From Octopus vulgaris (lineage: Eukaryota), in NCBI GenBank assembly GCA_951406725.2, contig OX597816.1:15128001-15192000 (forward strand): a DNA stretch of 64,000 nt, read 5' to 3'. The position numbers and the translations under genes are program-made. The notes beneath the pieces are model-generated. The model was not told where the DNA came from, ran no database searches, and saw nothing but the letters and a program-made list of their open reading frames with translations. Positions 62,299-63,711 of the stretch are shown piece by piece; position 1 is the first letter of the stretch, and every line of letters starts with the position of its first letter.

Positions 62299-62822
62299 AT
62301 ATATATATATATATATATATATATATATATATATATATATATATAGATGCAGCACGGACTTTGTCAGTGAACAGGTCGCGGATTTTAGCGACGAAAATAT
62401 TTTGACAAATTAAACTTAAATGTTGAAGTGAATCGAACGGCTTTTGTGTGTTTCTTAAATGGCTTATAAACACCTTCCATGCTGCAATTGTTTTCGTTTC
62501 AGCACACGATCTCAGATCAAATTACTTGCTATCCGAGTACATCTCCATAATATATATATATATATATATATATATATATATATATATATATATATATATA
62601 TATATATGTATATATATATATATATATATATATATATATATATATATATATATATATCGTGACGTATATTTGCCATCTCAATATGGCTACCCCTAAGGGT
62701 GGATGCTACTGTAGTTTTTAGCCCCAGGAGGACACACTCCTCCAGCTGGCCATAGACACACTTTCTGTGTCCTGTCAGTATTTGCAAAGGGAAGTCATCC
62801 TTCCCGTCTTCAACTTATGATA

Positions 62823-62867
62823 CACACGGACTCGAGTTTCGAGGTATTGACCTCTCGTCAGCGTGTG
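62823..62867 (-). ncRNA. Type I hammerhead ribozyme, copy 1
   Basis: Minus strand cacacg-CUGACGA-gaggu(caau)accuc-GAAA-cucgag-UC^-cgugug: complete core, 6-bp stem I, 5-bp stem II; predicted cut between 62829 and 62828. Confidence 0.93.
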
Positions 62868-63174
62868 ACAATCATAGTTGTCGGCGAGAATTAGATCTCC
62901 TTCACAAATACTTATACTTTTTCCAGCGTCCACTGTCGCTGATATTGAAAAAGTGAAATCAAACAATGATAAATATCAAAGTGAGTTATATACAGTAGCG
63001 GTAACACATCGTGACGTATATTTGCCATCTCAATATGGCTACCCCTAAGGGTGGATGCTACTGTAGTTTTTAGCCCCAGGAGGACACACTCCTCCAGCTG
63101 GCCATAGACACACTTTCTGTGTCCTGTCAGTATTTGCAAAGGGAAGTCATCCTTCCCGTCTTCAACTTATGATA

Positions 63175-63219
63175 CACACGGACTCGAGTTTCGAGGTATT
63201 GACCTCTCGTCAGCGTGTG
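63175..63219 (-). ncRNA. Type I hammerhead ribozyme, copy 2
   Basis: Identical to copy 1; predicted cut between 63181 and 63180. Confidence 0.93.
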
Positions 63220-63711
63220 ACAATCATAGTTGTCGGCAAGAATTAGATCTCCTTCACAAATACTTATACTTTTTCCAGCGTCCACTGTCGCTGATATTGA
63301 AAAAGTGAAATCAAACAATGATAAATATCAAAGTGAGTTATATACAGTAGCGGTAACACATCGTGACGTATATTTGCCATCTCAATATGGCTACCCCTAA
63401 GGGTGGATGCTACTGTAGTTTTTAGCCCCAGGAGGACACACTCCTCCAGCTGGCCATAGACACACTTTCTGTGTCCTGTCGGTATTTGCAAAGGGAAGTC
63501 ATCCTATATATATATAAAAAGTGGCACCCCATCAGTTATGACACCAAGTGGCACTCCCAAGGCTTAGGGTTGTCCTGAGGCTATTGTAAGTGGAAGACAG
63601 AAGCAAACTTCCTACCACACATCCATGCCCCTGTGCCTGTATTGTGTTATTTAAATTTTAAAACTTGCTGCTCTGCTACCACCAATTGTCTATGATACCC
63701 TGGCTGGAAAC

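Follow-up and report, generated by a model that had tools for sequence, protein, structure and literature searches.

A tandem array of a 352-nt unit bearing hammerhead ribozymes, located in a 64-kb stretch of Octopus vulgaris DNA (referred to here as the window), represents, with a probability of roughly 70%, a young, non-autonomous element of the non-LTR retrozyme type that uses the protein of a Penelope-like element (PLE). By its sequence-level features the element is to be classed as a metazoan non-LTR retrozyme, and its insertion ends suggest a Penelope-type reverse transcriptase (RT) as the mobilising enzyme. The retrozyme class itself has already been published; new are the pair of start sites within a probable circle, each used at one insertion end, and the arrays that appear to go back to a single template. 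These features bear on the re-entry of retrozymes into animal genomes, which has so far been hypothesised, and on the origin of the tail and the inverted arms of PLE insertions.

A hammerhead array in the window

The array was delimited by TRF (period 352, 2.4 copies, 99% matches) and has its RNA sense on the minus strand. A base-by-base check revealed exactly two internal differences (62886/63238 and 63129/63481), in agreement with the sequence-only reading, which had described a 352-bp unit repeated 2.4 times with two substitutions. A structural scan of both strands identified exactly two type I hammerheads in the window. Both lie on the minus strand, and their predicted cuts fall directly after bases 63181 and 62829 in the RNA sense; the cut sites and the 352-nt monomer proposed earlier were thus reproduced. 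Monomer positions are numbered from the predicted ribozyme cut throughout, and the coordinates of all features are given in Table 1.

Table 1 Features of the retrozyme insertion and its target in the window.
Feature	Position	Strand	Description and basis
(AT)n tract at the element 3' end, insertion target	62550..62655	.	TRF 62550-62657
3' end at a fixed site (putative RT start site 1; monomer 168-173), abutting (AT)n	62656..62661	-	20/23 single-armed loci; 511 junctions
Whole insertion	62656..63505	-	2.41 head-to-tail turns of the 352-nt unit, single-armed; TRF and end mapping
Hammerhead 2, type I	62823..62867	-	predicted cut 62829/62828; RF00163 and structural scan
Cut-to-cut monomer, 352 nt, positions 1-352	62829..63180	-	predicted branched rod
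Palindromic helix III/loop 3, CUCGAG	62831..62836	-	second copy 63183-63188; sequence
Tail between start site 1 and putative start site 2, monomer 174 to 215-220	62961..63007	-	repeated 352 bp to the right
GCCAU/AUGGC hairpin immediately 5' of start site 1	63024..63039	-	C-G to U-A compensatory change between subfamilies (pair 146-153)
Hammerhead 1, type I	63175..63219	-	predicted cut 63181/63180; RF00163 and structural scan
Short (AT)n, 11 bases, at the 5' truncation point (monomer position 28)	63506..63516	.	

In both motifs helix I comprises six pairs and helix II four pairs with a 6-nt loop, and helix III consists of the conserved A-U and one C-G pair closing the palindromic loop UCGA, a weak form of the dimer type. 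An Infernal search with Rfam Hammerhead_1 (RF00163) matched both motifs over the full model (32.2 bits, E 7.8e-6), but with the gathering score at 34 a window scan at that level gave no match. What had been described as a perfect type I hammerhead on the minus strand of each full unit was therefore recovered with its core and three helices, but with a minimal helix III and a score below the Rfam cut-off. Because helix III offers one pair and a palindromic tetraloop, self-cleavage of the window hammerheads probably depends on a dimer; hammerheads with this form of helix III are reported to cleave poorly alone and well as dimers (PMC4209133, PMC7229834). The dimer duplex formed through the palindromic helix III is predicted at -11.3 kcal/mol, the active hammerhead fold is predicted to be less stable than the circle's minimum by about 6 kcal/mol, and folding two monomeric hammerheads in an 850-nt read-through transcript would cost about 12 kcal/mol. 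Among nine retrozyme dimers of Xenopus, Li, Clavereau and Pollet (July 2026, bioRxiv 10.64898/2026.07.22.740005; Li et al. 2026 below) report cleavage in one.

The longest ATG frame around the circle measures 38 aa in sense and 25 aa in antisense, which upholds the earlier view that the monomer holds no credible ORF, and an ORF check of the 352-nt unit found no frame of the autonomous PLE kind (RT plus GIY-YIG). The unit is low in GC, and its insertion ends are without LTR-type terminal direct repeats. At the window locus (L002 in the end mapping) the insertion starts at monomer position 173 and stops after 2.41 turns at 28. The short AT tract at this 5' end is probably the other half of the target, a duplication being unresolvable within TA.

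A young and dispersed family

When the genome (2.8 Gb, 227 contigs) was searched with the young unit, the best 40 of 2956 candidates yielded 185 matches on many contigs, with full units mostly 98-100% identical. The 45-base hammerhead of positions 62823..62867 has 407 exact occurrences in the genome (control, 0), and exact end junctions between site 1 and TA number 511. The retrozyme thus forms a young dispersed family of at least 500 recent copies, which bears out the recent activity suspected from the window; insertion ends (at least 511) are spread over multiple dispersed loci rather than confined to one. Since site-1 junctions outnumber intact hammerheads, many insertions are probably short stumps. 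The 40 young loci analysed below are the best-scoring ones and are therefore biased towards long young arrays; their longest arms reach six turns with no other sequence between units (L091 crosses the cut junction six times). Also recovered was an older subfamily in the same circular order; its likeness to the young unit is about 77% (range 72-81%), and its copies are mostly 85-88% alike to their own query copy (best 40 of 2082 candidates). Hammerheads of other families were found six times among 73 scored candidates of an Rfam search (L131 at G000:C5:6546758-6546804, and L132-L136); the best of them reaches 45.5 bits, and three carry a long helix II insert.

The chance that the window tandem is an assembly artefact is negligible. 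Among the contigs listed of four public runs, none bridges the array and its unique flank, and another locus, L024, looks like a mixed consensus, but hammerheads are spaced by 352/353 bp at many loci, the window locus has the typical 3' end of the family, and both of its covered units carry the subfamily allele 284G, which is common to four other loci.

Insertions end at two fixed internal sites

Ends were mapped at 40 distinct young loci. Twenty-three are single-armed, with the 3' end at monomer position 173 (19 loci), 169 (1), 216 (2) or 220 (1) and with 5' ends scattered from 5 to 333. In each of the remaining 17 the 5' end of the array is joined to the 5' end of an inverted arm; 15 of these have one outer end at 164-173 and the other at 215-219, and the same end class was never found at both ends (0/17). 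The two exceptions are L099, with a 128-base inverted stub, and the mosaic locus L024. Because BLAST extends through AT microhomology, the true site 1 is placed at 168-173. The 3' ends thus sit at two fixed internal sites and not at the ribozyme cut.

Genome-wide, junctions of site 2 with TA were found in 66 forward-strand and 191 overlapping reverse rows, an estimated 130 sites or so, and a 31-nt control window gave only three TA-joined 3' ends; a similar window gave six distinct TA-joined 5' ends. The stretch between the two sites forms a tail of 43-48 nt that is present at one end only. At the window locus the tail segment is no terminus, site 2 being the second terminus of the family. Ends of the older subfamily, mapped at 30 loci with a query that itself ended at 173 and so biases these counts, fall near 173 (19) or near 213-220 (9), and two are interrupted within the tail. 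The two loci whose target sequence is clearly unique show target duplications of 11 bp (L003) and 13 bp (L089); none was called at five of the 40 loci plus L024, and TA tracts cannot resolve a duplication. At single-armed loci the median TA run is 40 nt on the 3' side and 27 nt on the 5' side (p 0.36), and the addition of TA repeats by the RT at the 3' end was rejected on these figures.

This architecture resembles that of PLEs. Craig et al. (2021) describe PLE insertions, unlike those of LINEs, as combining truncated 5' ends with partial tandems, an inverted copy that is likewise cut short at its 5' end, a tail of 30-40 bp on one end and a (TA)n bias, and purified PLE protein is reported to nick AT-rich DNA, to extend both strands and to start cDNA at two internal RNA sites bounding the tail (Frangieh et al. 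2024, PMC11167929). The octopus insertions share with endonuclease-positive PLEs (Neptune, Hydra, Naiad, Poseidon, PAc) the truncated 5' ends, partial tandems, inverted arm and one-sided tail, the (TA)n or AT-rich target, the two internal RT start sites and a hammerhead. They differ from PLEs in having no ORF, in a closed 352-nt permutation repeated up to six times per arm, in a tail that exceeds the 30-40 nt published, and in a canonical instead of a minimal hammerhead. The rule of one site per end (15 of 17, never the same) constrains models of PLE integration.

Some joints show additional detail. At the arm junctions of L014, L006-L010 and L096, short pieces of template are repeated at the 5' joints; at L014 the same 14 bases stand three times, resembling repeated template jumps during joining. 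At L024 (860-1420; G000:C5 near 97797500) the retrozyme is interleaved with an end of PLE family D and with TA repeats. A template switch was rejected for this mosaic, which is interleaved at a scale of 5-20 bases and also mixed with TA repeats; the locus is probably a mixed consensus of two alleles, in which case it would hold two different young insertions at one TA tract.

Conservation of the RNA fold

The monomer is predicted to be more stable than shuffled sequences, both as a linear RNA (z -6.24) and as a circle (z -5.47), and also in antisense (z -3.97). With a consensus circular fold from 11 near-complete copies of the older subfamily as reference, the young unit keeps 78 of 86 pairs against a null of 66.2 ± 3.0 (0 of 3000 randomisations reach 78), and six double changes are found where the null gives 1.4 ± 1.1 (0.1%). 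These double changes include helix II, where the changes between subfamilies are compensatory and loop 2 is unchanged, the long rod pairing both monomer ends, and the hairpin 5' of start site 1. When the minimum-energy fold of the young unit serves as reference, the pairs kept are 94 of 113 (p 0.056) and four double changes occur (p 0.06). The fold thus appears to be under selection between the subfamilies, a signal that is significant with the older reference and marginal with the young one. The conserved fold spans the entire unit, including the helices that join its two ends; its detailed structure is uncertain, since the two predicted folds have only 45 of 86 pairs in common. Of the hairpins named in the sequence-only reading, gacaca/uguguc and ggagga/uccucc occur in the predicted fold, but gccau/auggc and gggaag/cuuccc are not part of the minimum-energy structure; the former nevertheless shows a compensatory change in the older subfamily, and the latter is superseded by the long-range helix 23-28/291-296, which itself has a compensatory change.

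These data leave little room for the alternative that the unit is a satellite or SINE-like element spread by a LINE or through DNA-level processes, its hammerhead being a chance occurrence or a relic, and we regard this explanation as highly improbable. It could draw on the apparent LINE-type RT fragments in the window and on the weak helix III, but the compensatory changes in helix II, with loop 2 retained, speak against it, as do the two internal start sites, the one-sided tail, the sequence-overlapping head-to-head arms and the lack of a poly(A) or simple-repeat 3' tail of the element's own.

Variants within and between arrays

At the 40 loci there are 52 cases in which every covered unit of a locus carries the same variant. 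Ten variants are private to a single locus (private, that is, among these 40 best-scoring loci); seven of the ten are present in at least three units, and four private variants (L014, L081, L083, L099) occur on both arms of an inverted locus. No locus mixes subfamily alleles, and divergence has a median of 0.49% inside a locus and 1.28% from one locus to another. Eight variants are partly shared, one of them in four of the six units of L081. Singletons number 160 in 41,940 bases (0.38%); 11 of them are recurrent, several lying at a CpG or within a homopolymer run, and unit-specific changes are not inherited in order across loci. This is the pattern expected from repeated copying of one monomer followed by slight mutation, and a uniform multimer transcript fits it too.

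The latter possibility deserves attention in its own right: PLE protein might have mobilised an uncleaved linear multimer transcribed through a genomic array, the arrays being extended later by unequal crossing-over at the DNA level, in which case the hammerhead would be weakly active or simply carried along. This would account equally well for the fixed ends, the tail and the inversions, a homogeneous multimer would also yield uniform units and the closed-loop contig described below, and hammerhead cleavage is reported to be dispensable for PAc insertion in vitro (PMC11167929), to which may be added the weak helix III and the eight of nine Xenopus dimers left uncleaved in Li et al. 2026. We nevertheless consider this scenario unlikely. 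Crossing-over cannot cross an inversion, so the four locus-private variants common to both inverted arms argue against it; the singletons do not show ordered inheritance, and the fold is conserved around the whole unit, including the helices that pair its ends. We retain the copying of a single excised monomer by a PLE enzyme as the preferred reading.

Public sequencing runs were compared as well. Of 24 runs listed, 20 hold at least half of the words of the stretch; they carry seven organism labels, come from ten studies and are, by guess, RNA in 14 of the 20 cases. In one run (X5, with the label of another organism and RNA by guess) a single 383-nt contig covers 62689-63069 with one inserted base. 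Judged from the coordinates, its length equals 353 + 30, as expected for a closed loop of 31-letter words, and its alleles (66T, 152A, 161A, 284A, 297G) are those of L095, L097 and L098. The contig is a weak hint of a circle; a multimer or DNA would look alike. In the same runs a repeat next to the array has deeper coverage than the array itself, and contig depth cannot rank expression.

Penelope-like elements as candidate helpers

The search for resident PLEs, which scored 150 of 6136 candidates for a GIY-YIG family and 150 of 11743 for a thumb-domain protein, returned about ten families. In families A, B and D the copies terminate in (TA)n, with two end classes 30-40 nt apart. Intact young ORFs with RVT_1 and GIY-YIG domains are present: family A is 99.1-99.9% alike in 13 of 17 other copies compared, the ends of family D are 99% alike, and family K is a young PLE with 727-aa frames in many copies (L227, L228, L230, L231). 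Families A and D carry a CxxxxCxxC motif before a C-terminal GIY-YIG domain, a layout like that of Neptune and Nematis, and family K is without the two cysteines inside GIY-YIG, as is Hydra; both assignments are by motif, without a tree. The named eukaryote relatives of one resident PLE protein are from bivalve molluscs. Canonical PLEs have a single ORF; a full-length copy of family D (L195:5623-9357) has a separate upstream frame of 486 aa, with no Pfam match, before its 725-aa RT-GIY-YIG frame, and the start of family A is similar to that of family D. The terminal repeat of family K contains a hammerhead like that of the retrozyme and shows two end classes about 70 nt apart.

Neither blastn nor an HMM built from 25 natural copies detected homology between the unit and the sampled PLE ends, the strong matches near PLE ends all being separate retrozyme insertions in the flanks. 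Targeted alignments against seven PLE termini gave two matches at p 0.004 among 35 tests, and neither was accepted: the control is too lenient for the likeness to the family K hammerhead because the catalytic core is shared, and the match to family D is T-rich and does not share the register of the start sites. When one PLE protein was compared by tblastn with 80 retrozyme loci (flanks of about 1-1.5 kb), only four had flank matches, among them the query's own PLE locus and an older PLE with a different hammerhead. A putative PLE-retrozyme chimera at L086 was rejected as a retrozyme inserted at the end of an older PLE copy. Since no homologous PLE was found among the families sampled, it is the style of insertion that points to a PLE helper; the sequence-only reading had named no particular element as the source of the RT.

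Could the arrays instead be truncated pseudo-LTR stumps of an autonomous PLE outside those sampled? The sampling was partial, the end architecture is the same as that of PLE stumps, and the hammerhead of the older subfamily, like those of PLEs, carries additional bases at the bottom of helix II and resembles that of family K. Such stumps are still a very unlikely source, as the retrozyme units follow each other head to tail for up to six turns without other sequence, and PLE protein matches the flanks at so few of the 80 loci. A separate element borrowing a PLE protein is the reading followed here.

A proposed insertion cycle

In the proposed cycle the array would be transcribed on the hammerhead strand, and two hammerheads would pair through the palindromic helix III and excise a monomer of 352/353 nt, as the motif and published analogues suggest. 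A host ligase of the RtcB type, by analogy with PMC7229834, may then close the monomer into a structured circle. The PLE RT-endonuclease would nick (TA)n and start cDNA inside the circle at 168-173, away from the ribozyme junction, and the RT would travel around the circle for up to about six turns before stopping at a random point. The fixed 3' ends, scattered 5' ends and TA target of this first-strand step are seen directly in the insertions, the PLE enzyme and the circular template being its putative agents. Often the other target strand would prime a second cDNA at 215-220, and the two cDNAs would be joined head to head, so that the insertion would be inverted and would carry the 45-nt tail at just one of its ends; the architecture is that of the mapped loci, and the order of steps is our proposal.

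We consider the odds even that a PLE RT performs target-primed rolling-circle reverse transcription on the 352-nt circle, with the two nicked target strands primed on one circle, or on sister circles, each strand at its own fixed site. If so, the one-sided tail and the inverted arms of PLE insertions in general would be explained, the circle would gain genomic support as a transposition intermediate of retrozymes, and the PLE protein would recognise its passenger by RNA structure and not by shared sequence. With hundreds of near-identical insertions of a young family and several intact helper candidates in one genome, retrozyme re-entry and the origin of PLE ends can be addressed together. For RNA-templated insertion tools, too, a minimal circular RNA that is copied into DNA in multimeric form would be of interest. 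As a catalogue entry alone, one more retrozyme in a mollusc-like genome would be ordinary.

Relation to known retrozymes

Metazoan non-LTR retrozymes have units of 350-390 bp in mussel, 330/350 bp in axolotl and 220-245 bp in coral (Cervera and de la Pena 2020, PMC7229834). The octopus element was assigned to this group from its size and layout in the sequence-only reading, and its tandem non-coding unit with one type I hammerhead each, low GC, self-paired monomer, dispersed loci and lack of LTRs are consistent with that assignment, as are the co-existing PLEs; its repeats fall within 150-450 bp at multiple loci, with target duplications of more than 4 bp where present. Helix III resembles that of the axolotl HHR_Amex1, which likewise has one pair and a palindromic tetraloop. 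Host and sequence differ from those in PMC7229834, the mussel family being compared by description only. Circles were demonstrated for those retrozymes, whereas the octopus element is known here from genomic sequence; conversely, the available text of that paper mentions no fixed start sites, one-sided tail, head-to-head arms or (TA)n targeting in them.

As to the helper, a 2020 review (PMC7761336) states, in the part available, that no repeat motif of retrozymes indicates one. Li et al. 2026 conclude from co-occurrence and pseudo-LTR homology in 35 species, with no mollusc among those in the available text, that animal retrozymes are non-autonomous and derive from PLEs, which act as source and helper; they discuss array growth by unequal crossover, and neither an analysis of insertion ends nor the word 'tail' is found in the text available of the preprint. 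Our conclusion that PLEs supply the machinery is the same, but it is drawn from insertion footprints and variant patterns, with no pseudo-LTR homology among the PLE families sampled here. In the literature, with supplements, Repbase and Dfam outside its scope, our search found no report of a cephalopod retrozyme, of the octopus family or of retrozyme insertion footprints.

Other repeats in the window

Directly left of the array, between two TA tracts, lies a very high-copy short repeat (62346-62540) with far deeper coverage than the array in all four runs compared. A SINE-like repeat follows a TA tract at 61857-62030 and also interrupts the tail in L111; it has stretches resembling tRNA A and B boxes. 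Two further tandem arrays, at 17766-18505 (169 bp x 4.4) and 48083-48819 (185 bp x 4.0), belong to a related dispersed repeat; they lie in opposite orientation, are 67-84% alike and contain no hammerhead according to the structural scan. Broken frames resembling pieces of LINE-type reverse transcriptase occur at 12994-15017, 24297-25007 and 39394-40740.
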